Shown piece after piece: positions 3,239-47,600 of a stretch of 64,000 bases of DNA. The notes beneath the pieces were generated by a model that worked only from the letters and a program-made list of their open reading frames with translations, did no database searches and had not been told where the DNA came from. The DNA lies in assembly GCA_977020255.1 (NCBI GenBank), contig CDROCS010003779.1, positions 248,001 through 312,000 on the forward strand. Direction: 5' to 3'. Each line of letters starts with the position of its first letter. Within the stretch, counting starts at the first letter, position 1. Both the position numbers and the translations under genes were made by a program. Source of the stretch: Obrimoposthia wandeli (lineage: Eukaryota).

Positions 3239-3245
3239 ATTCGCA

Positions 3246-3386: not shown

Positions 3387-3417
3387 ACAATATTTAAATT
3401 GAACCTTTTTTATTAAA

Positions 3418-3747: not shown

Positions 3748-3779
3748 ACAATTATTTATAAAATCAGTTAAAGATATGG

Positions 3780-7381: not shown

Positions 7382-7489
7382 AATGAAGTAAGACATTTTT
7401 TAAATTTATATTTATTAATTTTTATTTAGTTCAGTACAAGTACAAGAATCAGCAGAGAAGGTTCTGGGTGATAAATTCAATGGAGTTAG

Positions 7490-8815: not shown

Positions 8816-8816
8816 T

Positions 8817-12667: not shown

Positions 12668-12742
12668 AATTATCTAAATTTGCAGCAAATCCCGTTGTTT
12701 ATAACGAAGTATAACGGAAGTCATCCGCATACTGGTCTCTAT

Positions 12743-13555
12743 CTATGATGTCATCAGCTGTGTGCCACTTTTTTTGCTGATGCTGACCTCTTGTTTCTGT
12801 ATGTCAATGATCATACCGCAATATTCAATCCTGGAGGTTGGCTAAAGTTGGGACTTTTTCCAATTTATCTGGAGACCCCATTTCTCAAAGAAATTCGTTA
12901 CTTCTTTCCAGATTGTTGCCTTTGGTTTTGCCACTATGAGAATGTCGTCTATGTGGACGTGGGCAAAATCAACTTGCCAGTTGGCTTGTAGCTGTCCGAG
13001 AATTCTGGTGATGGTCCACTGCAAATTTGCTGGACTTTGGCGGAGTCCCATGGGCAGTCTCGTGAATCTGTAATAGCATTCGTTGTTCCAAAAATTTGTG
13101 AGATGCCTTGCTGCTTGTCGTATCTTGATCTGATAGAATGCTCCTTTCAAGTCGATTCTAATAGACAATCTATCTTTTGGGATTCTCTGTAACCTGTTGG
13201 CTAGATTTGGGATTTTCATGAAGAGTTGAGGCAAGTGCGGCGTAAGATGCTTGAAATCTACGATAAGCCGTCTGAGATTTGAATTGGCCTTTGGTATCAT
13301 ACGAACTTGCGAGCAAAAGGGGCCTTTTGTCGATTTTTCTATAATCCCGGCTTGCAACAGAGCTCGAACACATGCATCGATGTGTTGCTTCTCTTCGTTT
13401 TGAATCTTAGTTCTCTTCCTTTGTCTGGAAGCTTTAACTGAGGCAAAAGGCGCATAGCCCTTAGTTGCCAACATATGCATCCTGCCGTCCAGGTCGACGT
13501 CACTAAATCTTCTGGCATGAGAAGAGTTTGAGAGGGCATACTTTCGAAATATTAT
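12743..13555 (-). CDS. Reverse transcriptase (DIRS/hepadna-like) with HIDD motif; in-frame TAG at 12842-12844
   Basis: KGY.PF, RRLIVDF, RIDLKGAFYQI, RLPMGLRQSP, HIDDILI, GLQINWKKSQL*PTSRIEYCGMIID. The frame is open back to an AG acceptor at 13556-13557. Confidence 0.9.
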
Positions 13556-13752
13556 CTAAATTTAAAACAAATAAGACTGGCAAAATTTATATTTTCATGC
13601 CAGCTTATATATGCCACCCAATCACATCACGCCTGGAACCCGAAGGTGGTAGGCAAGAAGTGATGTGACTGAGTGAGCGAAAGATACCAAACAACAAAAG
13701 GTTTCAGCCATAAAAACTTAAAGACATAAAAAGGGACACAAATGATAAGTGA

Positions 13753-14268
13753 TCACGTTACTGCTTGGTGCATTGTTAGCGATAGCAGCACTCCCCAGTC
13801 TTCTGTTTGTCTGGTTCTTGTTTCCTCCGATCTTGTTGGCGCATCGGCAGGGTTGTGCTCCGTTCGCACAAATTGCACTGTGATCTGTTTGATCACTGCC
13901 ACCATTTGGACTGCAATAAGCGTCCACCAGTGCTTTACCTTTGTGGGAATTCTTCTGTTTTTAATACTCCAAACGAGAGCCAGATTATCGCACAGGATGG
14001 TGTCTCCTCGTGCTGCCTTCCACATGGCCATTAACACTGCCCTTGCTTCTTGGAGGTAAATATTCTCTTCTTTAAAATTCCACTCCACGATTCGACGGCG
14101 TTCTGCTAGCCTCTTATCCTGTATCTCCACCCGATGATTCCACTCTGTCGCGACAGCAGTATACAAATTTTGATTGAGGACCCTCTTTCTTAAGTCCTCT
14201 TTCTTCTCATTTATTCTGATGTTTGCTTCAATCTTCGTCACCAGACTCTTCATTTTAATGAATTCCAT
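13753..14268 (-). CDS. Retroelement-type RNase H domain protein (DIRS-like), located upstream of the RT
   Basis: LYTAVATEW (first Asp absent), ENIYLQEARAV, LCDNLALV, VRTEHNPADAPTR; TATA box at about 14303-14311. Confidence 0.75.
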   Translation of the reverse strand: MEFIKMKSLVTKIEANIRINEKKEDLRKRVLNQNLYTAVATEWNHRVEIQDKRLAERRRIVEWNFKEENIYLQEARAVLMAMWKAARGDTILCDNLALVWSIKNRRIPTKVKHWWTLIAVQMVAVIKQITVQFVRTEHNPADAPTRSEETRTRQTEDWGVLLSLTMHQAVT

Positions 14269-14463
14269 TTTTTAATTATGAAGAGGTTAATAAATTTGAA
14301 CCTATATATATAAATTTAAGATATTTTTTAATCCAATTAAATGATATATTTTTATTTATCAAATGAGAGTTTAATAAATCTATAACTTATCATTGCAAAT
14401 AAACTTAAAGATAGCATTTCTAAATTTTTAAAAAAATAAATATTAAGAAGAAAACATATGAAA

Positions 14464-16278
14464 TTAATTTTTATAAATTATATTCTTAAACATTTTTACG
14501 AAGTCATCATTGGGATCATCCGGATCGAAATCCCTTCGACTAAGTATTATAGGAGAAAGCGGTACTGGTTCCTTCTTTGGCCGGCCCGGTTTCTTTTTCG
14601 GCTTCACCGGTTGCTTTGTAGCAATTGTCCTTCCCTCGGGTTTTGGCAATAGTTGCCGCAACTTTTTGGGAGGAGGTGCAGCCGATGTTGATGGCCCTGA
14701 CATAGAAGTCCTCTTCCTCTTCCGCGGAGCTTTCTTCTGTTTCTCCTCCTTCTCACGTTGAAGCTGTCGTGAGACGACATCCTGTTGCCCTCACGAATCT
14801 GGAAGCATTGCTGGTGTATCCAGTTCCGCCAGGAATTCATCCAATCCAGCTTCATCCCAGGCCCTCTTTAAGTTCTGGCTGGTTGTTGGACGAGGAGAAG
14901 CAGTATACTGCAGGCGTCGTTGACTTGATGGCGGACTAATCTCAATCGGTGAGACTGGGATACTCTCATATAAAATTGGCCCGTCGTCCACTGGAGATGG
15001 GAGAATATCCTGCCGTCCAATCACCGCCTCAGAATAATGGCCAATTGAGGTGCTACATTTTCTCGAGCGCCTCGTCTTCTTCACCTCTGCCCTCTTCGTC
15101 CGTTTCCGCGAGAAAGGAGTAATTTCTCCTCAAGTCTCCTCAAATATCTGAAAGGGTTCCTGCAAAATATTAATAAAATTTAAACATATAAATAATTTAC
15201 CTCAATGATGGGCAGGTTAGCCTGTTTCACCAACTTGACCTTCTTCCGAGTGAGGGTTTTGACCCGATGGCGTTGCGGTTTCTTAACTGCCGCTTGCTTC
15301 ATATCCACCGGTTGAATAGGCGTCGCCTCTTCGTGGATGTTCTCCATCTATGTGAATTATTAAATTTAATATCTAAATAATTTACCTTAAAATTATCTGG
15401 AGACACTAGGTATCGGAGCTGACTCCTTGGCAGCTCCTGGCTGCATTGACTCGCCAAGTACTGCGGTTCAATCAGCCTCTCCGTCATGGTCACTGACGGT
15501 GCCAAATCCAGTTGAAGTTTCTGAAAATGAAATTAAAAAACATTTAAAATAAATGATGTCTAACCTCATTCGTCGCTTTTATTCTCCTAACAGGAGATTT
15601 CGGCCTTTTGAATGGTTCAGGCGTTGTATTATCTGCTTTCAGAGTAGCAGAGGGAGTGAGACCATCCCAATCGTCGGTGAACAGGTGCCACTCGTCCTCG
15701 TTCAATTCTGCTACCATCGATTCGTTGGCTCCTGATGCTCCGATACTTGGCTGTATCCATTCGTCGGCGAATAGAGTCAAGTCCTCCTCTCCATCCGAAG
15801 GTACATCATCGATGAACAGCTCCTCGTCTGAGTCTGGTGCGAGGACTTTCTCCGGCTGAGACAGTGGGATCAATTTCCAGGGGCATTTGATTGCCGCCTC
15901 AAAATTCTGGAAGAGATTGGATCTCCCTGCTGCTACTGCTGAAGTTGTCGGACGATTGGGTTTTGTGTTTTGTCTGGGAGTACATTCTTCTTAATTCTCA
16001 ATCGAATCCTGACTAGTCAGGTCAATATATTGGGATCTCTGTACCCCGCCTCTCACGTCCATTGGTTTTTCTCTTGGAGTTGAGCTGACCAATGAGGCTT
16101 CTTCTTCCAACAGGTTCGCTCTTGCTGCTGCTTCTCCTTCGCTCACCACCGATGAGTCTTGACTATCTAAGTCAATGTATTGCGACGGTGGTGGCGTTCG
16201 CTGCTGCACTGGAGAGAGATCCCCATATAGTTGAACCTCCATCTCTTCGTCTAGGTCAACGTTGTTGAAATTAGGCAT
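14464..16278 (-). pseudogene. Large 4-exon low-complexity regulator-like gene (about 563 aa) with three point stops
   Basis: GT-AG introns at 15521-15564, 15348-15385 and 15160-15200 join the four track ORFs into one frame (1692 nt). Motifs: YIDLDS and YIDLTS, PPPKKLR, KKPGRPKK. Confidence 0.7.
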
Positions 16279-16517
16279 TCTTGATTTTGATTAATGAAAA
16301 ATAATGAAATGAGGTCTCCATTATATATATAGCGGTTGGTGTATGTTAGGGTCTTGGGTATGACACGGGTCGTTTACATTTGTAGTTGTGAGAGGTAAAG
16401 TGATACTGTAACGCGTGTATTTGTAGTTATTTTCATGAGAATAGAGCCCGCCCAGAAGGGGCGGGTGGTGGTCGTAGGGTGTTTCCATCCAACACCCGTC
16501 GACTTTCACCCAACACC

Positions 16518-17688
16518 CTTATGTGTATTTTTTATAAACATTGTTTTTAATCAGTTTCCTTATTTTAGAATGGATAAGAGATGTGTAGCAAATTTTTATT
16601 ATCCAGAAAGAATTTCAAAAGGAAAACTATGTAATATATTAAAGAGGCATCAAATTATACGAGTTATGAATCCTGTGAAAATATCAAAAGTGGAGAAAAA
16701 ATATCTCATCGAAATTTTAACAACATCTGATTTTGATAAATTGAAAAATATTGTGGGATTTTACATTCCTGATTATGTATATGAAGGAAATTGTTTCGAG
16801 CTTGAAACTGATCCCAGTCTGGATTTTAAAGATGATCTAGGATATTTGATTGCTCCAATTCTAGATGAAGAACTATGGAATATCTCAATACGTCTCAATG
16901 GATATTTTGGTGATGACGGGAAAATGCAGCCTCTTTGGACTTTGAGTGAAGCCAATATGTTGTTTTATGTTTAATAAATATTTTGAAAAATAATTTTGTC
17001 TCGTATTTTGTTTTTGCTCCTCTAAATTATATAGATCTGACCAATGTTTTTCGTGCCTGTAAATCAAGAATTAAGGGTGGTGTATGTTAGGGTCTTGGGT
17101 ATGACACGGGTCGTTTACATTTGTAGTTGTGAGAGGTAAAGTGATACTGTAACGCGTGTATTTGTAGTTATTTTCGTGAGAATAGAGCCCGCCCCTAAGG
17201 GGCGGGTGGTGGTCGTAGGGTGTTTCCATCCAACACCCGTCGACTTTCACCCATCACCCATCGACTTTCACCCATCACCCGTCGACTTTCACCCATCACC
17301 CATCGACTTTCACCCATCACCCGTCGACTTTCATCCATCGCCAATCGACTTTCACCCAAAACCCATCGTAGTTATTTTCGTGAGAATAGAGCCCGCCCCG
17401 ATGGGGCGGGTGGTGGTCGGTGGGTGTTTCCATCCAACACCCGTCGACTTTCACCCATCACCCGAGGTAGTTAGTGATATACAAGAGAGCGAGACATTCG
17501 CCCATCACCCGAGGTAGTTAGTGACATATACGAGAGCGAGACATTCGCCCATCACCCGAGGTAGTTAGTGACATATACGAGAGCGAGACATTCGCCCATC
17601 ACCCAAGCTAGTCTGTGACCTATATCAGTCCCGAGCCCTTCGCGCCAATAGACGCGAAAATTTTTTAGAGAGGGGGACCCCCCCACCT
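16518..17688. repeat. Right terminal inverted repeat of element 1
   Basis: Reverse complement of 1-959, followed by three 47-bp units (about 17452-17600), a TTCGCG/CGCGAA hairpin and terminal GGGGGACCCCCCCACCT. Confidence 0.9.
16570..16974 (+). CDS. Copy 2 of the TIR-borne putative SSB-like gene
   Basis: Protein identical to 503-907. Confidence 0.6.
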   Translation: MDKRCVANFYYPERISKGKLCNILKRHQIIRVMNPVKISKVEKKYLIEILTTSDFDKLKNIVGFYIPDYVYEGNCFELETDPSLDFKDDLGYLIAPILDEELWNISIRLNGYFGDDGKMQPLWTLSEANMLFYV

Positions 17689-22625: not shown

Positions 22626-24084
22626 CGTTTCGATTTTAAATTTTCATTTATTAAAATATTTATAAATTTAAAGCTGAACTCGCGTTTTCACGGTAAAAAT
22701 GTTTAGTCAATATTATAAACACATGAATAAATAAGTAACACTGCAAATAAACAAGTTTCATAAAATTTAAGAAACGTTTTGCAACAGAGCAGAGGATTCT
22801 AATAAAAATATTAATATACCTCATACTACTGTTTATCTAAATAAATTTTTATGTCCAAGTTTTAGGGTTTCTAATTGAAACTCTTAGATCCTCGTATGGG
22901 TTCTGAAGCGATAGGGCTTACAGATGTTTGTGGCCTACCTATTATTATCTTTCTTAATTCGAGTCTCAAATCTGAAGGTTTTCTTTTTCTGTTTGTGTTT
23001 GGTGTGGTGTATAGAGAGTTGTGTGCAATGTAACTGAGAAGGTCATAAAACTAATGTAGTGTGATGTAGGTCTATAGTAGTTTAGATTTTATTTTATAGA
23101 AAGTCTGGTTAAAAACCTAGACTTGTTGAATAATGAAAAGCCGGAGCCAAACGACGATAACGATGTTCCTCCGGTAATATTGGGATACAACAATCCTCAA
23201 ATACCCCAGTGCTTGAAATACCGTCACGTGGTTGTCCCTCGGCTGGCCTATAGCTTAGTGGGTTCGTAAATACCGCGAGTTTAATAATGTGAAGCAAGCT
23301 TTGTTAGTCTGTTCTAATTACTAAACTTTATTTCCTAAAACACAACACGTAAGGGTTCTTAAACACGATGACACAATTTCGCAGAGAAGGGGGACACTCT
23401 AAGTCTTTTTCTAGTTATTTACTTTGTTATTTATTCAGTCTTTTAATACTAGTATGATCTCTCTATTTGAACCTGTCGAACAACTCTTACTGTTAAGTAT
23501 AAACTTGTCTTATACTTTACTGAAAATACGGACGATCGAATACGTATAATTATTCTAATATTGTCTAGGGGACTGCCAACGATACAAGCACCGTACGACT
23601 ACTATAATTCGTACTGAAAATGATATATGTCAAACTACTCAAATTCGTACTGAGAAATAACGATAATGACAATGTAAACTACTTAAATTCGTACTGAGAC
23701 TTAATGTTGTTCCTCACCAATTTTTCCGTTCCTCATCTCTCGTGGTCGATTCGTTTCACTTCCCGTTATCAGTCACTGAATAAGTCGAATTATTGATCCG
23801 ATGTCGGCTTTCCTTTTATTTTCTTGCTAGTGGCGTCGGTTTCGAAACGTATTTTCCGCTCCGCACTGTGGGTGGTCTCGCTCAATCTGTTTGTTCGCAC
23901 TGCGATTCCTCGATCTGCTCCTATGATGCCGTTTGATGTTTAGTTTATGCGTTTTATAAATAATATTTACCCATAATTGGTTTTGTTTAAGAGTTCGCCG
24001 ATTCAATATTTCTAATTTCTTTATTTCCAAAATTCTGTATCTCGGGATATCTGATTTCCAATTTTTGTGCACACAGAAGTGTAA

Positions 24085-24292
24085 AGTGTCGATTCTAAAA
24101 CAATAGCACACAAAGAACTACCCCTACTCCTCCCTCTCCCCCCGAACAAGGAACGAAGAACAAATCACATCTGGAATTCGCTTAGTCATTCATATGTGCT
24201 TTGTTCTTCGTTCCTTGTTCGGGGGTGGAGGGGGGAGGGGGGAGGGGGAGGGTGGAGGGGTAGTTCTTTGTGTGCTATTGATTTTGAACCGA
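24085..24292. repeat. Left TIR of element 2: imperfect ~200-bp palindrome with poly-C/poly-G arms
   Basis: Arm ...GAACAAGGAACGAAGAACAAATCACAT, loop CTGGAATTCGCTTAGTCATTCAT, then the complementary arm. Confidence 0.9.
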
Positions 24293-25338
24293 TTTTATAC
24301 ACCTATCTTAGACTATAGTGTCCATATGCGACGGATTTGTTTTTCTCAATCCAAACCCTTTCATCATCATAACATCTTAACGCAATTTTATCATTATACA
24401 TTGTAAATAATTGATGATTACGAGATGAAATACGTGTCTAACCGGCAGTTATAATTTCATCATCGACATAACATTTGATGTAATGCTCATGTATGATTTC
24501 GGTTTGTTTAAGGGAGATACCCTTAGCCCTCATACTCGTTTTCAATGAGTAGCATTTAGGTTTCAGAAATACCCATTCATCATAAAGCACTGTCCCTTGC
24601 TTTCATCTTTAAACTTTCCAATCACATTTCGATGATAATCGTTAAATAACTCATGTATGTGCGGGTAATTACTAGTATCTAACATCTGATCTTTAATCAT
24701 TTGTTTTAAGAGGAAATCTTTATCTACATGCTTACACTCTAAAAAAACGAGTCTGTATCCTTTGCAACTATGTTGATATCACAATGATATTGCTTACGAT
24801 ACCGGTTAAGCTCACTGTACTGTAGTTAGTACATACGTGGTTTATATAAGTTCAACACAGCTTGACCAATATATGAGGGTCGATCCAGACAAATTTCTTT
24901 ATTTTGCATAAATAAAAGATTGAGATTGTCGGTTATTTGGGTATGCTTCTTAAACCAAGGGCTTGAAACAAGTTTAGTAAACTGCCGATCATTCTTGGTA
25001 AGACGGATATCTTTACGTTTTTTAAGATTTTCCACCGTCTTACCATATATTGAGTTATTTTTGAGTTTATAAAACTCTTTATAATATCTAGTAGTACCCT
25101 CTGCCCGTTTCCAGCTATTGATATCAATATATGTTTTAAATATAGGAGCTTGATGAAACTTTATTGCTCTATGCACTGGTTTAATTTCTGCTCCCAGAAA
25201 CAAGTAAAATTGTAGTAGTTGTGAGTGTATGATGTAATTATTTTTATCCTTATGGGTCATCAACAGCTTTGAAGCTTTTTCTCTATTAGGCGCAGTCGGA
25301 AAGTCATCAAGTTTATCATGAATACTGATGGGTATGTG

Positions 25339-25561
25339 TAAATCAATTTTCAACAAGTATCCATGTTCTTTAAGACTTCAGTCCTGCATATTACTGTGAA
25401 TATACCTCTCAGTTATAAGCTCAATTGTCACTTCAAAACTGTCATATACGGTATATGACAGTTTTGAAGTGACAATTGAGCTTATAACTGAGAGGTATAT
25501 TCACAGTAATATGCAGGACTGAAGTCTTAAAGAACATGGATACTTGTTGAAAATTGATTTA
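25339..25561. repeat. Perfect fold-back palindrome (about 111-bp arms, 1-nt centre at 25450)
   Basis: ...CTGTCATATAC-G-GTATATGACAG...; the arms match base for base on reading. Confidence 0.95.
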
Positions 25562-26160
25562 TTGGGACACCTGTATCGCTTCTAATATTAATTGCAATGT
25601 TTGAGATTACATTTGATGCTAAAGGGATATACATGGGTCTGTATATTGCATTATTAACCGTGTCTCCTGGTGCTTTATTTTTATCTAACCATATAGATGT
25701 TAATAAGGGTATCATTTGACCTCCCACGTTTACAGGTTCATACAGACTACCATACAAGTACATGTGATCAAACTCGTAATTTAATCGAGGTTTACCTGAC
25801 CCATTGACTGTAAATCGTGATTTATCTAACCCTAATACGTACATTAAACGTTGATCAAATGCAATATGCTCAATTTCATTCTTTAATACAAATTTTATTA
25901 GCTTATCATTATCATTCAAATAAAATCTTTTAAATAATACATCGCATTTAGATTTAATGTATGCTACTAATGCATTTACATTATTATTATTTAAATCTTC
26001 TGTAAATACAATTTTCTTGTTGTATGAACCGGCTTTATAATGCATATATTGTAAATTATGTGCACCACAATCAGGTCTGATAGATGTTGATCCTTGTAAA
26101 ACTCCTTTATCATCAGACTCGAAACCATCTGAAGTTAATGAATTGAAAAGGAGTCTTAAT
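25561..26160 (-). repeat. Duplicate of penton segment 29400-30000
   Basis: Identical MHYKAGSY...SDTGVPI translation; followed at 26161-26712 by a second copy of 24906-25456. Confidence 0.92.
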
Positions 26161-28919
26161 GCATAAATAAAAGATTGAGATTGTCGGTTATTTGGGTATG
26201 CTTCTTAAACCAAGGGCTTGAAACAAGTTTAGTAAACTGCCGATCATTCTTGGTAAGACGGATATCTTTACGTTTTTTAAGATTTTCCACCGTCTTACCA
26301 TATATTGAGTTATTTTTGAGTTTATAAAACTCTTTATAATATCTAGTAGTACCCTCTGCCCGTTTCCAGCTATTGATATCAATATATGTTTTAAATATAG
26401 GAGCTTGATGAAACTTTATTGCTCTATGCACTGGTTTAATTTCTGCTCCCAGAAACAAGTAAAATTGTAGTAGTTGTGAGTGTATGATGTAATTATTTTT
26501 ATCCTTATGGGTCATCAACAGCTTTGAAGCTTTTTCTCTATTAGGCGCAGTCGGAAAGTCATCAAGTTTATCATGAATACTGATGGGTATGTGTAAATCA
26601 ATTTTCAACAAGTATCCATGTTCTTTAAGACTTCAGTCCTGCATATTACTGTGAATATACCTCTCAGTTATAAGCTCAATTGTCACTTCAAAACTGTCAT
26701 ATACGGTATATATATATACCTAGTATATGATATACCCATGTAAAATATGTATGTGGTAACGGTTGACTCAAGGTCCAGCCATATAGGTTATTTATGTCAA
26801 TGTATATGAGGAATGTTTCATCTGTTGTTTTAACGTAATGTTTATTGATGAAAGTCATCCCTCCCCGTATCCCTGCCTCAAATATGTTCTACATTTCGGG
26901 ATCATGCAATAAATCCACGTCATACTCTAACGTTTTTAATGCGCTAGCCCAACTAAAACTGGGGATACTAAAGAAATTGAGCGCCTCTAGATTATCATCA
27001 TCCCTTACTTTCTGTCTAAAGGCCTCAAAAACATCACATAACAGATACACGTCAAGTTTCATATACTCAACCATGTAGTCTTTAATAGTATTACACCCTA
27101 ATACGGTTCACATCCTTATGTCTTCATTATATTGTTGATCAGTGACTCAAGAAGGAAACTCAGATTTAGCGGGTAACTGACTCTCCATAAGCCTATCAAC
27201 ACCACTAATATATTCATATGGAAATACCGCCTTACTTGTTCCAATATTAGGGTTTGGGTATTGTGTAGTATAAGGACAACTTGACAAGTATGAAACTAAG
27301 GATTCAAGACTTGACGTTCTAAAAAGGTATGAATCAATGAATTTCAATGTCCCCCTCTTCATCTCTATACGGAAGGACATGAACTTACCTTTTGATTTAG
27401 GGATAATTGAAAAGGATTTACCTTTCAAGTCAGAATATTTTATAAGGTTATGAAACACCACAGATAAAACTGGTCTCTTTGCAAACTTGCGACATAAATT
27501 GCATTTGTTGCATGCTGCACCCAAGTATTTACCCATGATATGATCATGATCTCTAACCATACGATCGTTTAATTTTTACAAAGATAGCAATTAGTGCAAT
27601 CTCTAAAGTTCAACATGTCATTATTAGTAAAAACCATAGGAACATAATTACTATTTATCCAAAAATCTGCCAATTGATCATTTATCAACTCAGTTAATTT
27701 ATCTACAAATTTTTTAGCACACTGCAGACCGTAATAACTGAAATATTGTATTGAATTATTAGTGTTGTTTTTCAAATTCAACCCTATAGATATTGGTTTA
27801 TGAATGTATTTGAAAGTAATATGCGGATCGAGTATTGACTCAAAGTCGGCATAGACAACAAATGGTAGCGCAACAGATTTAGACCAGTCAGAAAACTGAC
27901 AATTGGTCTCTTTAGGCATCGTAAACAAGGTTGTTAAATCTGTATTAATATTACAATGTGCCCTGTGTTTGTCATATGAAATCGTGGTTCGAAAACAGCA
28001 AAGATATTTCTCACACCAAAAGAGACGCACATTATATTTTTGAGTATTTAAAAGTATATTCAGGTTTGTAATCCCTGTATAATGATAATTACCAATCTGT
28101 TCCAACAGCAACAAGTTTACTACTTTTCGCACTGCTTAAGACTTGTTATATAAATAACGTTAACATCTAGGTTTTTAAACACTAGATGACTACTATGAGG
28201 CTCTACCTTTGTAGTTTTATAGGAGAATACTGTTATCGCAATATTATTGAGTTTTTCAAATGCCTTGATGCAGTCTATCCTCATAGGACCAGGCTCGCAT
28301 ATTAGTTCATTTAAATAATCATTATAGTTTTCAACTCTATGTCTGTTTCGATTGTGATCTTTATAATGTAGGATGCTGAGAACAGCGTATTTAAAACACT
28401 GATCATCAGTATTATTTACGTTCACTATAAACAGTGTTTTAGCAAGCGCAACTGGGGTTTTTATAAATGATGATCCTGCTACGCTTGAAAGTGCAATAAA
28501 TTTAAAGGATATCAACAGAATATTAAATACTGACCATTCCGAACTCTTATCCGTATATAAATATCAATTTTATTGTTGAGCTCAACTGCTCTTGAAGTGA
28601 TAAAATCTTGTTCAAAAATATTTGCTTAACAGCTTACATGCCATGTTTTATGTTGACCCTCATTATTGACAAATTCGGTTTCAACACCAAACTGTATTTT
28701 ACAGGGCCAAACATATCTATACTGCTAGTAAGTTCAGTTAGCATAGTATCGTTAATATATAGGTTAAGCATGTTTAACCCACTAACATCAAAAACAAGGT
28801 TTGATTGAATTGCACCTCCTATTTGATTGTTAAAAGTTAATGTATTATCTGAAGTAATTAACAATACATAATTCAGATTTACCACAAGCCATTATTAAAC
28901 AAATATTGTACCTGGTTTT

Positions 28920-29302
28920 CTTCATTTGTTTATACTAGATGCTTTCTTTCTACCCCTACTCTCTTGCTTTTTAGCTTCGGGTTCAGTCGCCTCCGCTGCT
29001 TCCCTTGCTTTACGTTTACGTCGATTTTTAATAACTTTAACAACTGTACCAAAAGCTTCCTTAGCCTCTGGTATGGCTCCGGCAACTTCGCATATTGCAT
29101 GTTGTTTAAGCATTGGTAACACAGATTTGTTGTTCATTATTACATCTTGAACTGTTTTAACTCCAACACGTCCTAATCTTTTCAATATAGGGAATGCTAA
29201 CCGCCCTAATGTTCTCAACTATCCCAAACCGTACTGTTTACCTACAAAATATGGTAATTCACCACTTTGTTGAGGCCCACAAAATGTCTCAATTATATTC
29301 AT
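28920..29302 (-). pseudogene. Small virion-type gene (QQSGELPYFVGKQYGLG*LRTLGR)
   Basis: Homolog of 5895-6272; conserved Trp codon changed to TAG. Confidence 0.7.
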
Positions 29303-29347
29303 AACGGTAATGGACAACTATTTTAATACAGATTGTTTATAACTGAT

Positions 29348-30506
29348 CTATACAGCGACATGTATGGTAAGGGATACTTTTGCATTGTTGGAAAAACTTA
29401 TTGGGACACCTGTATCGCTTCTAATATTAATTGCAATGTTTGAGATTACATTTGATGCTAAAGGGATATACATGGGTCTGTATATTGCATTATTAACCGT
29501 GTCTCCTGGTGCTTTATTTTTATCTAACCATATAGATGTTAATAAGGGTATCATTTGACCTCCCACGTTTACAGGTTCATACAGACTACCATACAAGTAC
29601 ATGTGATCAAACTCGTAATTTAATCGAGGTTTACCTGACCCATTGACTGTAAATCGTGATTTATCTAACCCTAATACGTACATTAAACGTTGATCAAATG
29701 CAATATGCTCAATTTCATTCTTTAATACAAATTTTATTAGCTTATCATTATCATTCAAATAAAATCTTTTAAATAATACATCGCATTTAGATTTAATGTA
29801 TGCTACTAATGCATTTACATTATTATTATTTAAATCTTCTGTAAATACAATTTTCTTGTTGTATGAACCGGCTTTATAATGCATATATTGTAAATTATGT
29901 GCACCACAATCAGGTCTGATAGATGTTGATCCTTGTAAAACTCCTTTATCATCAGACTCGAAACCATCTGAAGTTAATGAATTGAAAAGGAGTCTTAATT
30001 CATTTTTAGTGTCAGCATCCATCTTGATATAGAATTTTTTGTTGTTGACGGATTTTATTAGTATAACATTATCCTTTTTATCAATACCTACAACAACTGT
30101 GATTAGGGAAATAGAAAGCTTTGCAATCTTATCTTTAGACGTGACGATGAGTTTTGAAATATTATTAATTGTCTTTTTAATAACTTTTGGTTCTGATTTA
30201 TCACCATGCAATTGCGGTTCTTTCTTTTTCTATTTCTACTTGAGTACGAATTACTGATAAAGATATTTGATCAGTCTGTTGATTGAATAATTTAATATAA
30301 TAATTAATTTCACTGCCCTTATTTAAAATAACAGAAGTTTTTGTATACGTAAATTCAGTTAATGCCGCCTCCCATTTACCATTTAACGTAATTGGATTCT
30401 TCCTATCTACAGTGAATAATGAAGCCATATTATTAAGTTGAGTTCTCGGACAACTATTACTCGGTAAAATCATATAGAAGTCTCTATCTGGCTTGCTTTG
30501 ATCCAT
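29348..30506 (-). pseudogene. Minor capsid (penton), frameshifted
   Basis: FYMILPSNSCP...GKWEAALTEF and YLYGSLYEPVNVGGQMIPLL...PMYIPL. Confidence 0.85.
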
Positions 30507-30529
30507 GTTGATTCAGAATATCCATGCCA

Positions 30530-31500
30530 CTTTACGAGATATTGTTTATTCTTACTGCAGCCTTTACATTTTACGACTTCTTAGATACGGAAAAGTGTAA
30601 GTTTATCAATTACTTGTAATTCAGGTTCATAAAATTTCCATGTTATTACATTACAATCATCATCAACTATAGAGTACATTACAGGATTTGCACATTTGTC
30701 TATTTTATCTATCCTAAACACCTCATCACTCCAATACTGATCAAAGTTTTTAAAAGGCTACCACTAAACTTTGATATTCGAACATAATCACCAGTCTTAT
30801 GTTTAGGCTTAATAACTTTATCGACTTGATTACGACTCAACCAAATTTCCATTGCATTTTTATCATTAATATCAACAGGTCTCATCCGTCTAAACCTTTA
30901 TTCTTACTGTGATTGTATGAAGTGATTACTTTTGGTAAAACGTCAACCCATCTTTTATTGCCTTGTGCAATAAAATTTATTTTCAATCAATCTCTCAATG
31001 TTCTATTAAACCTTTCAACTACTGCAGTTTTGAATTGTGAAACTACAGAGTATTGTTCAATATTTAATTTTTTAAATAAACTACCTACATTTTTGTTGTA
31101 AAACTCTTTACCCTTATCGGTTTGCACATGTATGGGGATAGTTTTATCAATCATTGTACTTAGAGCAGCCTCTATATCCTTACCTGATTTAGTTTTTTAC
31201 AGGTAATGCACGCGCATACCTTGTAAACACGTCAATACATGTTAAAATATACTTGTTACCATCATTGATACTTGCATATGGTATCAATTCCATCAAATCG
31301 GCCTGCCATAAATCGTTAGGACCACTTGTTCTGTATGCTTGAGTCGGGAACTTCCGTTTCATTGGCTTGTTTAGACTGTATGCTAGCTGATTGCTCAGCC
31401 ATTTCTGAGTTTTCTTTTGACTCGTTTGACTTTTTGATGATAGTTTGCCAATGCTGCTGTACCCAGCTGAGTTTTCGGGATCGTACCATATCGTTTCCAT
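30530..31500 (-). pseudogene. int: rve integrase, fragmented
   Basis: WQADLMEL, LTCIDVFTR, VQTDKGKEF, AVVERFNRTL, WSDEVF. Confidence 0.88.
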
Positions 31501-31551
31501 TACAACAAGTGAATTTCAAATCGATGTTTGATATGGTATTACCCATTTTGT

Positions 31552-31881
31552 TTATGGGTGTATCAATTTTGCAATCAAAGGAGATACTAAAGTAGCAATT
31601 ATAGATATTAATGCACAGATAAAACCACCTTTTTGTTTTAGAATTACTCTACGTTTACCAGTTTTGCCTTTAGTATTCACTAAATCAAGTAAAACTTTTT
31701 GATGTTTTCTTAGGTTATGTTTATGATTACCGATTTTTACAGTATCTTTTGTAATATTAAACAACACTTCAACCAACTTATCAATAACAAAGGGTGGAAA
31801 TGACTTGAGAATACGTGATCTATATATGCTTGGAGCCTTGATTAAAACCTGAAAATTGGGAAGTTTAGATTTTGATATCAT
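31552..31881 (-). CDS. Conserved small Polinton protein (LKQKGGF)
   Basis: Homolog of 3418-3747. Confidence 0.65.
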   Translation of the reverse strand: MISKSKLPNFQVLIKAPSIYRSRILKSFPPFVIDKLVEVLFNITKDTVKIGNHKHNLRKHQKVLLDLVNTKGKTGKRRVILKQKGGFICALISIIATLVSPLIAKLIHP

Positions 31882-31967
31882 ATTTAATTAATTAAACTAT
31901 TTGCAATATTGTTTATAGTTTAATCCATTTACCAACTAATTTATTTACACGCTTTATATCTGACTTC

Positions 31968-32210
31968 TTAACCGACGGGTTTCTTCTTTTTCTTTAATGG
32001 TTTCCCTTTTACAGGTTTTCTCTTTACTGTCTTGACCGATTTCTTTAATGATTCATCAACTACTTTACGTTGATGAAGCACTGATTTAATAAGATTTTTA
32101 ATATGAGCATTCTTCTTTAGCATCAACTTGTTATCATTAACGTGTAATTTATCACCCAGTCTCCATTTATGTCCAACTCCACTAGGCATTATTTCTTTCA
32201 TAAATGACAT
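31968..32210 (-). CDS. Small basic protein
   Basis: Lys-rich C-terminus; same position as 3246-3386 in element 1. Confidence 0.5.
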   Translation of the reverse strand: MSFMKEIMPSGVGHKWRLGDKLHVNDNKLMLKKNAHIKNLIKSVLHQRKVVDESLKKSVKTVKRKPVKGKPLKKKKKPVG

Positions 32211-32215
32211 GATTA

Positions 32216-32859
32216 ACAGGTAGATATGTTTTTCTTTTGTTTATATATAAAATCATTATAGAAAATATCGGTTCTCACGCGTAAATCATCTGGATATTCC
32301 TGTGTAAAATCTAAAAACAAATATCAATGAGGGTTAGTTGTAACATCTTGAAATGCGTCAATCAAATATTGCTTATTACAAGGGAAGGTTTGACGGCAAC
32401 AAAGTCGACAACCGCTTGATCTTGTGAATTTTTAAATAATACCAGATAATGTACATTTAAATTCTGAGTACGGTGTTGATTGCCTTGATGAAAGAGATTT
32501 TGAGTGATAAAAATCACTGTTACATTCCTATGTCTAGCTATTTTGGTAAACAGGTTATTAAAACCCGACTCTTTATTTGCTTCATCATACAAGTCATCAA
32601 TTACAATGACATTTCCTGAATTTTACCTCTCAGACCATTTATTATCAAAACCATTAATAAAATGAATACCCTTCAAATTACCTAATTCTGTTCGTGTTAG
32701 ACCAGATTCCCCTACACCTCCGTAATGTCAGTATATTCTACCAAACTTTTGATTAAACATGTTTTTATTTTGAAGTAATTTAGTTACAAAATGTGTTTTC
32801 CCACTCCCACTAGGGCCTACTATTTAGTAAACCACGTAATTTTTAAGTTTTGTCATCAT
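32216..32859 (-). pseudogene. Packaging ATPase, fragmented
   Basis: GPSGSGKTHF, VIVIDDLY, ARHRNVTVIFITQNLF. Confidence 0.88.
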
Positions 32860-32889
32860 CAATAATAATAAATCAAAATAAACGATTGT

Positions 32890-33156
32890 TTATATACGTT
32901 TAATTAATATATACAACAACAGAGAATTAAAAATTGACACAGAAAAGGTTATATACATCATGTTTGAACGATTAATTTGAACAAAATTTTCAAAATCCTT
33001 ATTCCGTTTGAAATCTCTATAGACATTTGAGCGAACAATTTCCTTTACATTATCACAAGAAAGTCCATCAAAACTAAAAAAGTATTGAACTCCATTTATT
33101 GTTCCATTTATAATTTCCTCAACTGCCTCATCAACTAATTTATTGTTTTCATCCAT
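32890..33156 (-). CDS. Small tail-anchored-like protein
   Basis: Homolog of 2271-2552 (EI..G.I.G and DN...VRS.V.R.F). Confidence 0.6.
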   Translation of the reverse strand: MDENNKLVDEAVEEIINGTINGVQYFFSFDGLSCDNVKEIVRSNVYRDFKRNKDFENFVQINRSNMMYITFSVSIFNSLLLYILIKRI

Positions 33157-33174
33157 TTATATAAATCATAAATT

Positions 33175-33998
33175 TCAATTGTTTATACCATGAAATTTTA
33201 CATTTCTTACTCTCCGTTCGATCAGGCATTTGCATACTGGACATGAATGTACCATTCTAGAACATGATATACATGTATTTACATGTCTGCAAGGGAGAAA
33301 TACTACTTCAATATGATTATTTAAACATACTACACATTCGGGGTCGTTTAAAATGTATGAAAGTATATTTATATATTGTTTTTCAGGTTCCATTTCTAAA
33401 TAAGATAAATCACAAATCATTTCAAATAGTGATTTGTATTCTCCATATTGCATCATTTTATATTTTAAAACAGATTTTATTCTATCTTTTGCGAAAAACC
33501 TTTTCAAATATCTGATTTGGTTTGTATCCATCAACATATCAAATTTCTCTATAGTTAAAGGATATTCAATAATACAATCTGTTTCGATATTTTTAATTAC
33601 ATTAGCATCATTATAGGGTCTTAAACTATTTGAATAGCATAAATCAGGTAATTTTATATCAATATCTGATACATATACTTTTCCAATCAATGGTGATGTA
33701 TCAAAATCAATTTTTTTATTACTAGTTTCAATTATTGGTACATTTGAAGCATTTAACTTTAATAGAAATGGACATGTAGGAAAAAATTTCATATGTTGCT
33801 TCATTGGTTTAAGATACTATTCCCATTCGGATATTGCACCTTGACAGTATATACATTTTACTTTATCGATTGAATCATCATCATGTTTATAAAATCCGGC
33901 TTTAGCTAAATCATATACAGATTGTTTCCCTTTAAAATTTATAATTAGCGATATTAATCTTTCACTTTCACATCTATATTTCAATGTAAAACTTTCAT
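33175..33998 (-). pseudogene. Inhibitor of apoptosis (BIR + RING) with a stop inside the BIR domain
   Basis: ERLIS...LAKAGFY...DKVKCIYC...W...QHMKFFPTCPF; C-terminal CVVC...FLPCRH..CISC...CPVC. Confidence 0.88.
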
Positions 33999-34120
33999 TC
34001 TATAATAATATACTTTTCGCTTAACTAAAACATCATTAACAGTTTTATAATGAAGTATATAATCAACTAGCATTTTCAAATCATGTAAGAAAAAAAATTC
34101 AACTAAATAAAATTTATTGT

Positions 34121-34610
34121 TTATATCAAAAGTAAAATATCAGTTATTATCCAAGTCACATCAAAGTTATAATCCAAATCCTTGAGACCGAGTATGACCA
34201 CTTTCCCGCTTGCAAATATGTTGACACACAGAGGATTGTGTTTTGAAAACCTCAAAGCAGGAAACAACTCAGGTACGAACATGCATGCAGCTCCACACTT
34301 TTGAGACAACTTGTATAGGTTCAACTTCTTACCTAAATCGACAGTAACCATTACTGATTGAATACGTCCAATCTTTATTCTAACTGGATACTTGAGCATA
34401 GTTGTAGTAATAGGTTTCTTGCAACCCATTATCATGCATGATCCTAATAATAATAATAATTAACTAACATAAAAACATACCTGAATGGAAGATTATAAGG
34501 GTATAATCCTTACAACTGTGCACGTACTGACATGGTTTCCCTAATTTGAAAGGTAAGTGACTGATATCTCTTTTAATTTTACCTTTATAATTAATATTTG
34601 CAAGATTCAT
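34121..34610 (-). CDS. TBP-like protein, 2 exons (34610-34481, 34443-34121), 150 aa
   Basis: 130-nt first exon and 37-nt GT-AG intron in the same phase and position as 1751-2251; FVPELFPAL and IFASGKVVILG. Confidence 0.8.
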
Positions 34611-34732
34611 GATTGAATTAATGGAAATAACCCCATATATATATAATATTCATAAGCTAAAGATTAACTAATCAGAATCGAGTATGATAATATATAAGCT
34701 ACCACTTTTGATATAAAATTCATTATTTTGAT

Positions 34733-35393
34733 ATGAACTCTAAACAAACTAAAACTATCAAGTTTGAGAAGCCACCATCAAGGTTTGCGGATACAGATGA
34801 GGATACCGATGATGTAGTTTTCATATCAAAACCAAAGAAGCAAACTATTACAAGCAACAACAACAACAACAAACAATCCAAAAACTATCAAGATCGAGAA
34901 GCAAGCATCAAATGAGGATCTATTTATTGATTATATAATTTCTGTGCCAAAACACAAGAAACCAAGCAACAAAAACAACAATAGACCAGCAGCAGGTGTG
35001 ATATTTGAGTCTAATGATTTGAAGTACACCAAGTCGGTTCTGTTTTATAACTGGCAAATGAATTTCTTGAAGACTCCAATCATATATGGATTCATGTTTC
35101 CGGTGTCTCTGAATAAGTCAAAATAGAATTTCAAGATAGATAGATTAAATCCATCAGATATTGATGATCTCAACAAAACTTTCGCGTCGATGCATTTCAA
35201 CATCATAGTTGGGAATCATATAATAATTCGAGCTGATCCTAATCTCTTCAAGCGAGATCATGATTTTAATGTTGACAAGATGAGAACTGGACTCAAATGG
35301 ATGATCGTCATTTCAATACAGGGCTACAAAATCAACTGTACAGGTCTCCATAAACCAATCTGGAAAATTACTGATGGACAAGTTCGCTTATGA
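34733..35393 (+). pseudogene. Homolog of the SSB-like family of element 1, interrupted
   Basis: FMFPVSL...KWMIVISIQGY...KPIWKI parallels NPVTI...QWTVTIRLYGY...LPMWEI. Confidence 0.6.
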
Positions 35394-35799
35394 TTGTGCT
35401 AATATATATTCTATCGATGTTACTTTGCTTATAAACAATTTCTTTCTTCATCATATAATCATGTATAAACATAGACTCCTAATATAAACAATAATTTTTC
35501 AAGATTAAAACTGCGATAGATGTCCGGTTATGCGGGGCAGTCTAACTCCTGGCATGGGGTCGCAGTACTAAGTAAATTAAATAGTTGCAAATAAAAAACT
35601 TGGGACGGTCAATTGTGTTTAATTTCAAAATTTCAAAATTTAATAGTTAATTTTTGATTTCTAATTTTTAAATGTAACAAATTTAAAATCTTCGTAAAGT
35701 GTTATGTACATACAAAATGTCTAGGTTAATTTGAACTACAGAAAATTAACCTACATAATCGTAAATGACATATAAAACCAATCAGGATTGAAAACGTAA

Positions 35800-36002
35800 A
35801 GTGTCGGTTCAAAAACAATAGCACACAAAGAACTTCCCCTCCCCCCTCCCTCCTCCCCCCGAACAAGGAACGAAGAACAAAGCACATCTGAACGACTAAG
35901 CGAATTCCAGATGTGCTTTGTTCTTTGTTCCTTGTTCGGGGTGAGGGGTAGGAGGGGTGGTGGGGGTAGTTCTTTGTGTGCTATTGTTTTAGAACCGACA
36001 CT
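35800..36002. repeat. Right TIR of element 2: ~203-bp palindrome
   Basis: Loop CTGAACGACTAAGCGAATTCCAG is the reverse complement of the left loop, apart from two changes. Confidence 0.9.
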
Positions 36003-43700: not shown

Positions 43701-44654
43701 GTGAGGCTTTCAAGCGTTAAAGGGTTCAACCTAAAACGGTGTTTTGATTCTCAGTCACTCCAGTCTGCAATCCAATCTCATGTCAAAAGAATGTTCTTCT
43801 AATTACTGATTCACTACGTGGGCACTTGTCCACCACGAAGTTGTATGCAACACTATATATGCCTCCGCGAAAAAGCAAGTACAGAAAAAAGCTAATTACT
43901 TCCAGTATTGTTGAAATTTCTATTGTCAATTTGTATCAAGTTATAATCTGAGTAAGGGATATACATATTTAATTATAATGCACCAATATTTTAAATTAAA
44001 TTATTTTAAAAGAATCTATATTTTCTTGGAAACGTGAGCTTATTTTACCAAATGTATTTATACTTTTAACAGGTAATGAATTTTAAAATATATAGCTTAA
44101 ATACGATATTCAATTTACTACTATTCACAGAAAATATTTGCGATGCATGTGTGTTTAGGAAACCGTTTTCTACTACAAATAACAATTCCATAAATAAAGG
44201 TGGAATCTGGGATTAAGTCATTAAAGCCTTCATACTCTATAATTATATTAAAAGTAGTCAAGCACTGGTAGGAATATTTAATCAAAGTCCATTAACTTTC
44301 GATAGTTATTCACAATTGCTTCTCTATTATTTTCAGTGTTTGTCAGAAACTCTCGTTGAAAACAATTGCTTTTTAAATAGATATGAAATATAATAATAGA
44401 GATGAGATATAGTTATTTTAAATATTTTGCTGCTTTTATGTAATGTTTTATTAATGATCACTATTGTTTGATGTCTCAATTAAAAATAAAATGCAATATC
44501 AAAATAAGGAGTATTTGTTTAAATCTGGTAAATAGATCAACCCATTATAACAATTTGTTAAGAATTTAAAATTTTTTTTATAAACTTTTATTTTCTCATT
44601 TGATTCTAAATTAATCAATTTTATTTTTAGTATTCTGAAGAATTATTTGATTTT

Positions 44655-47600
44655 ATGAACGGGTCTAGTACCGTAATATTCAACATCACGAAGAATGTAA
44701 CCTGTGAATCTGAAATGAAATTCATTTGGAATGTTTTAGGAATATGTGTCATGGATAGTAAACTTTTGTTTTCTGTTATTTTTGGGCTTCTATCAATTGT
44801 TGCTTGGATGATTTATGGAATACCGCAAATGATATTAAATTGCAAAAAGGGCATTCCAGATGAAGCCATGTCGCCGTTTCTACTGATATTTTGGACAATT
44901 GGTGACACTTGTAATATGGTTGGAGCACTCCTCACGAATCAACTTGTTCTTCAAGTGGCAATGGCGGCATACGCTATCTTTTGTGATTTGATTCTAGATT
45001 TCCAGTACTTCTATGCAGTTATCCGACGATATTTGAAAAAGAGATGTTAGTTTAAAACCATGTTCATAAGATTTTAAAATTAAGCTGTAATTAAAAATCT
45101 TTGCGAGTTTTCTTTGAATGAAAGTATTTTGATAATTTTAATTTAATGGATACAAAATTATAATCATACTAATAAAAATAGCTACAATCCCAATAATAAG
45201 AAATTTATAAGTGAAATTCGTTTTAAAAAGAACTCAAATTTATTAACTATTGCTAGTTTTCCAGCTTTTGTATAATTAGTGTTCTATTTATAATGGTTGA
45301 TTTTATATACAGTCCAAAGTTGTCAACGCTTTTATCGAAAACTTTGTTATTTTGTCATAATTAAAAAACGGAAAAGTTATTTTAAATTCGTTGAAAAGTG
45401 TTTCCAGTCATATTTTGCCCCAATTTTAATTTCCATGATCAATTTTGCTGTGCCTGAATATCAAGACGCGTTCTCTTCGATTATATCAATTTAAATGACC
45501 GTCAACATATTCCTCCCATTCTTTTCAGCACGACAAGGTCCTCAAGACAGTCTATACAGCGACAACTCCAACTATATTGATTCAGTTAGTGTTGAAGCTT
45601 CACGGCCTAATGCCAAAAGAGCAAAACTTGCTGATCAGGATTTGTCAGAGACCTCCTCAATCCAGTCGAGTTATGGTCCGTCAAGAACCACCGGAGGAAC
45701 GGCTTTGTTTTGTCTTGGGATGTTCGCTTGCATGGGTCTTGTCGGTCGATATTCACCAATTGAGCAGACCCAGCTCGGAGGATCAAGAAAACTTTTTAGT
45801 CTAGAAGAAGCTTATGAGCCAGTGCGTTTACTAAAAGTGAGTTTTGTTTGTGTCATTCTTGGGTATATTTTGCAGAAGAAATTTAGATGTAATAAACTTC
45901 GATGTCATTTTAAAATGTAATTTATATATTTATTGAAAATCAACTATACACGTCATTATTAAATTCATCTTTCAAATGTAATTGTATTCATTTTAAACGT
46001 ACTAAAAAGAAATTTGGATGAAATTTCCGTCATGATTTCTCTAAGTGAATTATCGAATTTGTTGTGTGACAATTCACAGTCCAGCAGATCGGGCTTTGAT
46101 TATGTAATGTCCGCTTCATCAAAATCACGTCACTATTTGCCGACCATACGATGTGATTGGAGTGATATATTTCTTCATATCCTGTTCTACTTTGAAAATA
46201 CTTAATTATAATTATGTTTGTTAAATTGAAGTCTAAAAATAACTTTTGCTGATTTAGACATTGACCAATTTTGAAAATATTAACGAAATATTTATATTTC
46301 ATTATACTATATGGTCTAAATTAGTTTTCAGTTTAATTCATTAACCTGAGAACATCAAAACTCAACGGGTGAATCAGTAGAAATAGTCCGAATTTTGAGT
46401 TATTTTTTATAAATATAAAATAAATATCACCTTAAAGAATAAAGTATTTCGTTAGATATATTAGGTTTTAGGGTTTTTCAAATTTACCATCGAAAATTGA
46501 AAACAAAACCCCTATTTTTGCAAGTTCACGATTCTATTTAAAGTAAAATATATTAATAATCATATGAAAATATTTTAAAATATATAATTAATAAAACTTC
46601 TATTTAAATTTGCCTTTGATTTTTCTCGTATTTTTTTATATTTATATATTTTCCGTCTGTATGTATAATTATTCGTTTTTTAATATATTTTTTTGAAATA
46701 TTAAAACTGATTTTTTAAATTTTTGTGTGGAGATTATTTTTCTTTCAATTCAGAAATACATTACATATAAGCTTATATTTACCTGTAAAAGATTAATTTT
46801 TTATTCAAAAAAGTTTTAGAAATTGCAAAGTTCTTGGGTTAAGAAAAAACCCGAGACGCATATGCATTTCACCTAAATGGAAGGTCACATCATATTTGAA
46901 GGTCACTGACATTTCCAGTTCAGTATTTACAAGAAATTAATTATTTAAATTAGTTATTTAAGAAATTAAAGTTATCGAGAAATTTCAAAATTATCCCAAA
47001 AAAAGGACTAACGTTAAAAAATTATATAACTTTGAAATATCATGTGACCTTATCTGTCGGTAAAATGCATCTACACCCACAACTTTATTTTAGTTAAAAT
47101 TTTATTTATTGAGATATCATGTTATAGAAATCGTTTCCTTGATCAGGCTTGACCAACCCAGTGGTCTTGCGGGCCATTTTGGCGACACATTCATTTTGCG
47201 TAACAAATATAACCTTTTTAGTAGTATACATCTTAATATTAACAATAGTATTTTAATTAATGACATATTTGTTTTTAACAGCTTTTGCTTTTGTGTCCAT
47301 AAATTTTTTTTAATAGAAAATTAGACATTCTTTAAAAATTTATTTTATGTCTTTTTTGTAGTCAATTTTGTCTGCAAAATAAAAATCAAAAAAATTTAAT
47401 TTCTTGGTTAAAAAATGACAAAATAATTTTTAAAATTATCTTGTTGACCATAGATAAAAGTTGTTCTTACTTGTGGAACCCAAATGAATCAAAATCTAGC
47501 TGTCTATTTATTGCGACAGAATGGCAAAGAAGTCGTGGGCTACGTCCTCGGCTGCTTATCCAGTTTATTTTACTGTAGCGGTCGTATTCCTCAGATCTAC

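Follow-up and report, generated by a model that had tools for sequence, protein, structure and literature searches.

A 64,000-nucleotide stretch of the Obrimoposthia wandeli genome (contig CDROCS010003779.1, positions 248,001 to 312,000; hereafter the window, to whose full length all coordinates refer) contains a Polinton copy, nominally at 24085..36002, which a first-pass annotation had singled out for its hairpin-forming ends. This element has decayed; it belongs to a Polinton family of high copy number, and shares 88–94% identity with the five stretches of other copies to which it was compared. Its true left end lies at 24075, 10 bases further out than originally annotated: copies elsewhere match the window out to this base and diverge beyond it, and the loose ends of 27 short-read contigs fall on it. 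One 421-bp short-read contig crosses from the host flank into the end of the element with no difference, and the short-read depth of the element is thousands of times that of unique flank. These contigs possibly come from the assembly's own sample, and are thus not independent of it. The six terminal bases (24075..24080, plus strand) form an end motif of the 5′-AG type that lies outside the palindrome and is common to copies with unrelated flanks.

Directly inward of this motif is the left subterminal palindrome (24081..24292), composed of a C-tract outer arm, a 17-nucleotide loop (24174–24190) and a G-tract inner arm that is truncated by a deletion. The deletion junction (24291..24293) marks the loss of ∼790–880 bp of the left terminal inverted repeat (TIR) and adjacent DNA. 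The deletion starts inside the inner arm, and a two-base microhomology is present at 24292/24293 in four of the five copies compared. The right subterminal palindrome (35796..36002, with a 17-nucleotide loop at 35891–35907) adjoins the inner, non-palindromic part of the right TIR (35453..35795), which is matched by left-end and right-end loci of other copies. Here the element lacks its final 10 bases, and the target duplication is gone as well. No target-site duplication (TSD) had been seen at the first pass, and indeed none exists in this damaged copy, because the left boundary was misplaced and the right tip has been lost.

Folding of both window ends yields hairpins at 24089–24292 and ∼35796–36002 with energies of −77.7 and −94.7 kcal/mol, respectively, far beyond those of 60 dinucleotide shuffles each (−24.9±3.3 and −25.7±2.8). 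The long hairpins are therefore genuine, as are the annotated poly-C and poly-G tracts in their stems, the first arm of each hairpin carrying C-tracts and the second G-tracts. Compared as inverted repeats, the two ends are ∼85% identical over 214 columns. Their loops are reverse complements of each other, as had been noted, but the unpaired loop is 17 rather than 23 nucleotides long, the larger figure including three stem pairs on each side. Likewise, the loops are mirror images, but this is expected of any inverted repeat and is not a sign of alternating (flip/flop) orientation. A conserved G-quadruplex was also considered and rejected: the motif occurs in the window copies, but most young copies carry one G-run of ∼10–15.

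Between the hairpins, the window copy retains a broken gene set that lies on the minus strand except for its last member. A polymerase-matching region (24293..28866; Pfam DNA_pol_B_2, E = 2.7e-5) has homologues at E = 1e-105 that carry PF03175/PF02945, and its domain folds are taken from another copy. The DNA_pol_B_2 match is in pieces in the window and above cut-off in another copy, and 242 polymerase homologues were found. Next is an open reading frame (ORF) in pieces (29348..30512) that we take to be the probable minor capsid (penton) gene from its position and a motif, no library match having been found. Also in pieces are a retroviral-type integrase with a chromodomain (30351..31515; Pfam rve, E = 6.7e-5, and E = 6.6e-13 in another copy) and an A32-type packaging ATPase (32277..32825; Pfam Pox_A32, E = 8.8e-4, and E = 3.6e-6 in another copy). 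Two accessory genes follow: the RING part of an inhibitor-of-apoptosis (IAP)-like gene (33175..33816), which has BIR and RING in other copies, and a TATA-binding-protein (TBP)-like gene (34121..34459; Pfam TBP, E = 1.1e-12). On the plus strand, two pieces (34818..35393) belong to a predicted OB-fold single-stranded-DNA-binding (SSB) protein, identified from a family alignment and the modelled homologue of a neighbouring element.

Two further scars interrupt the element. A recent rearrangement at 24905..26711 comprises a 552-bp duplication (24905–25456 is 100% identical to 26160–26711), a perfect 111-bp inverted copy (25339–25561) and a 621-bp copy of 29385–30003 (99%). With 99–100% identity between copies, it reflects either recent template switching or an assembly error; no joint is listed for it among the short-read contigs. 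The second scar is a ∼3.5 kb deletion junction (28857..28866) where other copies hold protease and major capsid genes, both of which are deleted in the window copy.

Other copies of the family code for a family B DNA polymerase of the protein-primed type (pPolB), an integrase, an A32 ATPase, a protease, a double-jelly-roll capsid, and IAP-like and TBP-like proteins. The protease and capsid have atlas scores of 0.95–0.98, and their Pfam support is weak (Peptidase_C5, DJR-like and Capsid_N, all below cut-off). The N-terminus of the polymerase was modelled from a natural in-frame stretch of one copy and 44 homologues. In the predicted structure, a little-finger-like, terminal-protein-like domain (Z 7.8, root-mean-square deviation (rmsd) 2.5, 90 residues aligned) comes first, and an OTU domain (Z 8.2, rmsd 3.9, 104 aligned) lies after it. 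A Ser between helix 2 and the last strand, as well as Cys/His, are invariant in 45/45 sequences. Terminal-protein and OTU domains have been described for Polinton polymerases (10.1101/2024.03.18.585575); the invariant Ser sits in the loop given there as the linking site, and the invariant Cys and His are the catalytic ones. The best viral structural matches are adintovirus polymerases, and mavirus polymerases also match. A Foldseek search of the model against solved structures returned none under E 0.001, and a polymerase piece searched by sequence against solved structures had no match.

An endonuclease-VII-like domain is inserted in the polymerase and is common among its homologues; a PHROGs search returned nothing beyond endonuclease VII. 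Such inserts have been ascribed to intein-like invasions (10.1101/2024.03.18.585575). The SSB-like ORF family adjoins the TIR and has few database relatives (five matches), and as a single query the ORF found no homologue. The model of the neighbouring element's homologue best matches T7 gp2.5 (Z 6.5, rmsd 3.4, 106 aligned), and giant-virus proteins match at E 5e-5. A protein with this predicted OB-fold would fit a strand-displacement mode of replication. No Pfam match to a Rep/HUH nickase or a tyrosine recombinase was found among the 60 ORFs of at least 75 amino acids of two copies, several small ORFs of which are unnamed.

Using the left hairpin to search the same genome, we obtained 890 first-look candidates, of which 40 were scored and 30 loci retrieved; inward of the hairpin, other copies run into sequence resembling the right-end interior of the window element. 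The terminal 26-mer has 2,246 exact matches in the genome, many of them as facing pairs ∼15 kb apart, and 2,174 matches genome-wide were counted for the inner arm where it runs on into element interior. At least ∼1,100 copies are present in this genome, whose gene relatives mark the host as an animal. Among pairs picked by eye from listings of facing matches 5–28 kb apart, perfect 6-bp TSDs flank 8/9, 19/22 and 4/6, or 31/37 in total, such that the reported lack of a TSD does not extend to the family. The six misses comprise three pairs with one mismatch, two with inverted flanks and one with a damaged end. In two end pairs 15–21 kb apart (L237/L238 and L235/L236), the outer flanks are also inverted copies of each other, up to ∼290 bp at 99.9%, as the result of either conversion between ends or assembly error.

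Where intact, the family TIR measures ∼540–715 bp (six of nine pairs, the alignments of the other three being interrupted by deletions), rather than consisting of a ∼200-bp palindrome as first proposed. The palindrome occupies 123–223 bases from base 7 onward, six bases from the TSD. The 5′-AG end hexamer and 6-bp TSD agree with the ends expected of Polinton/Maverick elements. Thus, by gene set, TIRs and TSDs the family is a canonical Polinton, as annotated, and the unusually long subterminal palindrome that opens its TIRs is a real family-wide feature.

When the strand bearing the element's 3′ terminus is folded, its last six bases stay unpaired in 77 of 78 cases, and the hexamer facing the terminus matches it at no more than three of six positions in 139/139 ends. 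Loop orientation was read from a mixed sample of integrated copies: 182 short loci, including 14 chosen to enrich for inversions, gave 148 distinct read-outs with both a terminus and the far stem end. Setting aside nine solo or fold-back read-outs leaves 139 true ends, of which 135 are flip, two are flop and two are without a loop (135/137 with a loop). Sixty termini chosen blind to the loop include 52 flip, one flop and seven unscored. In the window's own subfamily, whose arms differ by one marker base, there are 117 normal inner ends versus three swapped, and none of these three is inverted. A subfamily with an older loop has 18 matches, eight of which are an unrelated repeat, while the remainder include one flop and one solo hairpin. 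This unrelated repeat family (L179, L180, L184 and L189–L193) has a 25-base stretch that resembles the older-subfamily loop. Of the two flop copies, one has its partner end deleted, and the partner of the other was not found. Pooling the four tests, we reject flip/flop as a regular feature of the family (2/137 flop). Short-read contigs break inside the hairpin, and none spans it.

The arms of the palindrome covary. Among 137 ends with a loop, the arms agree in 108/127 ends for a 5-base block (shuffled 58.9), in 90/113 for a 7-mer (shuffled 37.7), and in 116/117 and 104/113 for two single sites (shuffled 103.0 and 92.9). Across 32 representative ends there are 47 doubly changed cells, compared with 15.6±3.2 after shuffling and at most five in slid controls. 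Template switching is known to homogenise arms and, when it occurs between strands, to invert the spacer (PMC8604942); frequent arm symmetry together with rare flops fits such a process. Fold-back copying has also overshot in two loci, where the palindrome runs through the terminus into inverted flank for 210 bp (L081:3700–4296) and 140 bp (L082:3834–4293) and then into element interior. Three solo hairpins have two termini, two of them with perfect TSDs; these could be new snap-back insertions, or deletions between the two ends, which repeat each other in direct as well as inverted orientation. When the facing hexamer is compared with a perfect copy of the terminus in four subfamily variants, 14/17 differences are transitions, as if the palindrome had once reached the tip. 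Arm deletions occur in 8/142 young arms, and the deletion variants are private to single ends. An apparent excess of inner-arm deletions (5 vs 3 of 71 young ends) was dropped owing to anchor bias. We conclude that fold-back copying of the element's end is the likely source of the palindrome, and that occasional template switching likely maintains its symmetry.

Window positions 1–17670 are occupied by another Polinton, which belongs to a sister lineage (∼70% nucleotide identity in ATPase and integrase). It has lost both tips, encodes two SSB-like paralogues and holds a reverse-transcriptase fragment (12842–13480; Pfam RVT_1, E = 1e-17). We considered this neighbour as a representative of a hairpin-free lineage and rejected it as such, as the copy has merely lost its tips. 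The sister terminal 27-mer has 15,282 exact matches. In copies of this neighbour's own subfamily (11 ends scored, 12 loci), a hairpin of 82–120 bases has a C-tract followed by a G-tract in arms of unrelated sequence; where its centre is asymmetric, orientation is fixed (14/14). Over the 27 terminal bases (24075–24101 in the window, 1501–1527 in sister locus L255), the two lineages agree at 17/27 positions without gaps (13/21 beyond the hexamer, p ∼3e-4), making this stretch, by sequence comparison, a candidate core origin or integrase site in otherwise unrelated TIRs. The sister lineage also produces mini-elements: 16 of the first 100 listed termini form two-ended pairs 175–297 bp apart that are mostly fully palindromic (∼180 bp), and seven of nine examined have perfect 6-bp TSDs. 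By extrapolation, the genome would hold about a thousand of these minis. Identities are 0.98 between minis, 0.96 between ends and 0.97 between minis and ends, values that would suit either an amplified family of minis or minis that arose one by one. Elsewhere in the window, exons of a host PQ-loop membrane protein gene lie at 44631–51265 (Pfam PQ-loop, E = 2e-11 and 1e-7), and an old inverted repeat pair lies at 50258–50633 and 56349–56717 (72.5% over 382 columns).

Our preferred reading, to which we assign a probability of about 0.5, is that these elements are protein-primed Polintons in which a palindrome derived by fold-back and maintained by template switching serves as an accessory origin structure, and not as a primer. 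The domain content of the polymerase makes protein priming, as opposed to hairpin priming, very probable. The element would replicate by ordinary terminal-protein priming with strand displacement. The displaced single strand could then fold its own end locally into a duplex of ∼80 bp, and this fold-back would leave exactly the six terminal 3′ bases frayed. A complex of terminal protein and polymerase might load at the frayed end without waiting for the distant ends of the element to pair.

The accessory-origin step, which is argued by analogy, is the weakest part of this proposal. Origins of phage phi29 are strongest with six unpaired terminal bases, by 17- to 30-fold (PMC4150772). That system resembles the one envisaged here in that its terminal-protein/polymerase complex initiates at the terminal bases, and six unpaired bases are the geometry that the fold-back would give. 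In contrast, phi29's natural ends lack a palindrome, its terminal protein has another fold, and the origins tested were two-stranded forks rather than hairpins. The comparison is an analogy only, drawn from an unrelated terminal protein. In favor of a function, the palindrome is kept at nearly every end, as the counts of inner arms and termini attest.

Several observations weigh against the preferred reading. The covariation counts include shared descent and come down to about five changes that are independent. A single mismatch between the arms survives in 52/128 ends and the C- and G-tract lengths are unmatched between arms, and hence homogenisation is only episodic and does not occur with each cycle. 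No selection is required for the boundary at base 7 to last, as a switch has to rejoin its template inside the stem. Five of the six terminal positions on the 5′ strand are capable of standard or G·T pairing. The fold matches have middling Z scores, and no extrachromosomal DNA was seen in the material searched, which consists of assembled contigs only. The sister lineage provides the remaining objections. Where present, its hairpin starts 32–42 bases in rather than at base 7; a long hairpin occurs in just 8/35 unselected non-mini sister ends; and 5/10 paired sister elements have a perfect TSD and a hairpin at neither end. The clade therefore does not need the hairpin, the autonomy of such elements being a separate question.

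Alternatively, the palindrome may be a neutral passenger that arose once by fold-back, was inherited from master copies and has been repaired by template switching, contributing nothing to replication, which would depend on a TIR panhandle and protein priming. We regard this explanation as possible, if tentative. That the sister lineage dispenses with the hairpin speaks for it, as does the capacity of template switching to homogenise inverted repeats without selection (PMC8604942). The hairpin is moreover a site of breakage, given that the window deletion starts in the inner arm and that young arms suffer deletions. However, a passenger this prone to deletion has been kept at nearly all of ∼2,200 ends, in at least four subfamilies that differ in arms, loops and lengths, while the deleted forms have remained confined to single ends. 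A second lineage that has a C-tract/G-tract hairpin with unrelated arm sequence is likewise not what this explanation would lead one to expect.

In a bolder version of the accessory-origin proposal, which we consider doubtful, the element would make its own pre-opened origin for protein priming by folding back, and a single palindromic end would suffice as a complete minimal replicon. Copying that snaps back as far as the terminus would then give two-ended minigenomes of 180 bp, replicated and integrated in trans, and the sister minis would be fossil copy-back defective genomes of a Polinton.

The palindrome could instead act in excision, integration or packaging, as a cruciform or as a signal bound by proteins, and have no part in initiation, which we judge improbable. 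Its position six bases from the integrase cut is suggestive, the element encodes a junction-resolvase-like domain, and the fully palindromic minis have 6-bp TSDs; TIRs of some casposons also contain palindromes (PMC4046053). Nevertheless, cutting at the base of a cruciform would put the terminal hexamer on the host side, and sister elements without a hairpin integrate with perfect TSDs.

The first-pass annotation had likened the ends to the self-priming hairpins of parvoviruses and the telomere junctions of poxviruses. Under such a rolling-hairpin or hairpin-telomere mode, the folded 3′ end primes synthesis and the ends are regenerated by nicking or junction resolution. The terminal hairpins are certainly very stable, the same model has been proposed for palindromic-ended virophages (10.64898/2026.07.28.741278), a hairpin has primed fold-back synthesis in the chromosome at least twice, and the polymerase carries an endonuclease-VII-like domain. 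In addition, some parvoviral left ends are reported to have a single orientation, with one being flip only (PMC1185569), and thus a fixed orientation alone is not fatal to the model; that parvoviral end, however, depends on NS1 nicking. Hairpin priming nonetheless fails in its predictions because the 3′ end is unpaired, the loop orientation is fixed and the terminal hexamer lies outside the palindrome. Self-priming would overwrite this hexamer, yet it is invariant in the 2,246 exact ends. The near absence of flop ends, including among the three swapped-arm ends, differs from adeno-associated virus (AAV), where the orientations of the ends are random and independent (PMC11575299). The polymerase has terminal-protein and OTU domains, its endonuclease domain is common in homologues, and neither a nickase nor a protelomerase was found, the Pfam search for Rep/HUH and tyrosine-recombinase proteins among ORFs of two copies having given no match. 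More generally, parvoviruses (AAV2, PMC11575299; MVM and LuIII, PMC1185569) share long terminal palindromes with an asymmetric centre, but a paired 3′ end that primes, a need for Rep/NS1 nicking and, in AAV, random flip/flop are features that we do not observe in this family. We therefore consider replication of this kind very unlikely. Finally, an independent palindromic miniature inverted-repeat transposable element flanking unrelated DNA, which the first-pass annotation had named as the case that would refute it, or a fold-back artefact of long reads, is scarcely credible despite the three solo hairpins, two with perfect TSDs, and the failure of short-read contigs to span the hairpin, as inner arms running into element interior (2,174) are about as numerous as termini (2,246), none of the first 100 listed termini forms a short pair, and the fixed arm asymmetries, asymmetric loop and subfamily variants are incompatible with read fold-back.

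The family shares with described Polinton/Maverick elements a length of ∼15 kb, TIRs of hundreds of base pairs, a 6-bp TSD and a conserved six-base 5′-AG end (PMC8097293), as well as a pPolB with terminal-protein and OTU domains, an integrase, an ATPase, a protease and a double-jelly-roll capsid (10.1101/2024.03.18.585575). It departs from vertebrate Mavericks in the 123–223-base palindrome that directly follows the end motif, the term 'palindrom' being absent from PMC8097293. The number of copies is also different, at least ∼1,100 here, whereas vertebrate genomes hold a median of 8 copies and no more than 287 (PMC8097293), and the family adds genes for IAP-like, TBP-like and SSB-like proteins. 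Large expansions of Mavericks in animal genomes have been published (10.64898/2025.12.11.693146).

Palindromes in TIRs beside the TSD are reported for endogenous virophages of Halocafeteria seosinensis and for polinton-like viruses (PLV) of subtype 4 (10.64898/2026.07.28.741278). These integrase-bearing relatives belong to the same supergroup, but their palindromes are shorter (52 nucleotides in subtype 5), hairpin priming is proposed for them, and the palindromes are found there preferentially with non-pPolB genes, whereas here the pPolB has a terminal-protein domain and six bases are left free. Casposons are similarly self-synthesising, encode a pPolB and in some cases have internal palindromes in their TIRs, but they are prokaryotic, use a Cas1 integrase and have short TIRs (PMC4046053). 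The portions available of 10.1101/2022.07.28.501842 and PMC6431247 say nothing on such hairpins, and a literature search of mostly titles and abstracts, outside subscription journals and Repbase reports, returned no report of subterminal palindromes in animal pPolB Mavericks. Terminal palindromes are already known in protist virophages, and the long base-7 hairpin in a pPolB Polinton is a new variant. Searches for relatives elsewhere gave no match for the integrase against viral contigs and one distant locus for the polymerase alignment. Among 37 metagenome loci there was no long hairpin and no match to the family hairpin; most of these loci are a few kilobases long and probably stop short of an end, and thus they do not address how general the feature is.

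Standing models for Polinton ends invoke a panhandle with protein priming or, for palindromic ends, hairpin priming (2026 preprint). A family with more than 2,000 ends amounts to a population test that separates the protein-priming from the hairpin-priming model. A long terminal palindrome here coexists with what is very probably protein priming, and hence it would be wrong to take a palindromic TIR for a rolling-hairpin origin. Ends of this kind give rise to deletions and inverted duplications in the host genome, and to palindromic mini-elements. The hairpin with its six frayed bases offers a small and precise substrate for studying origin function, and if the bolder version of the accessory-origin proposal is true, subterminal hairpins would be a recurrent and overlooked origin element of Polinton viruses.

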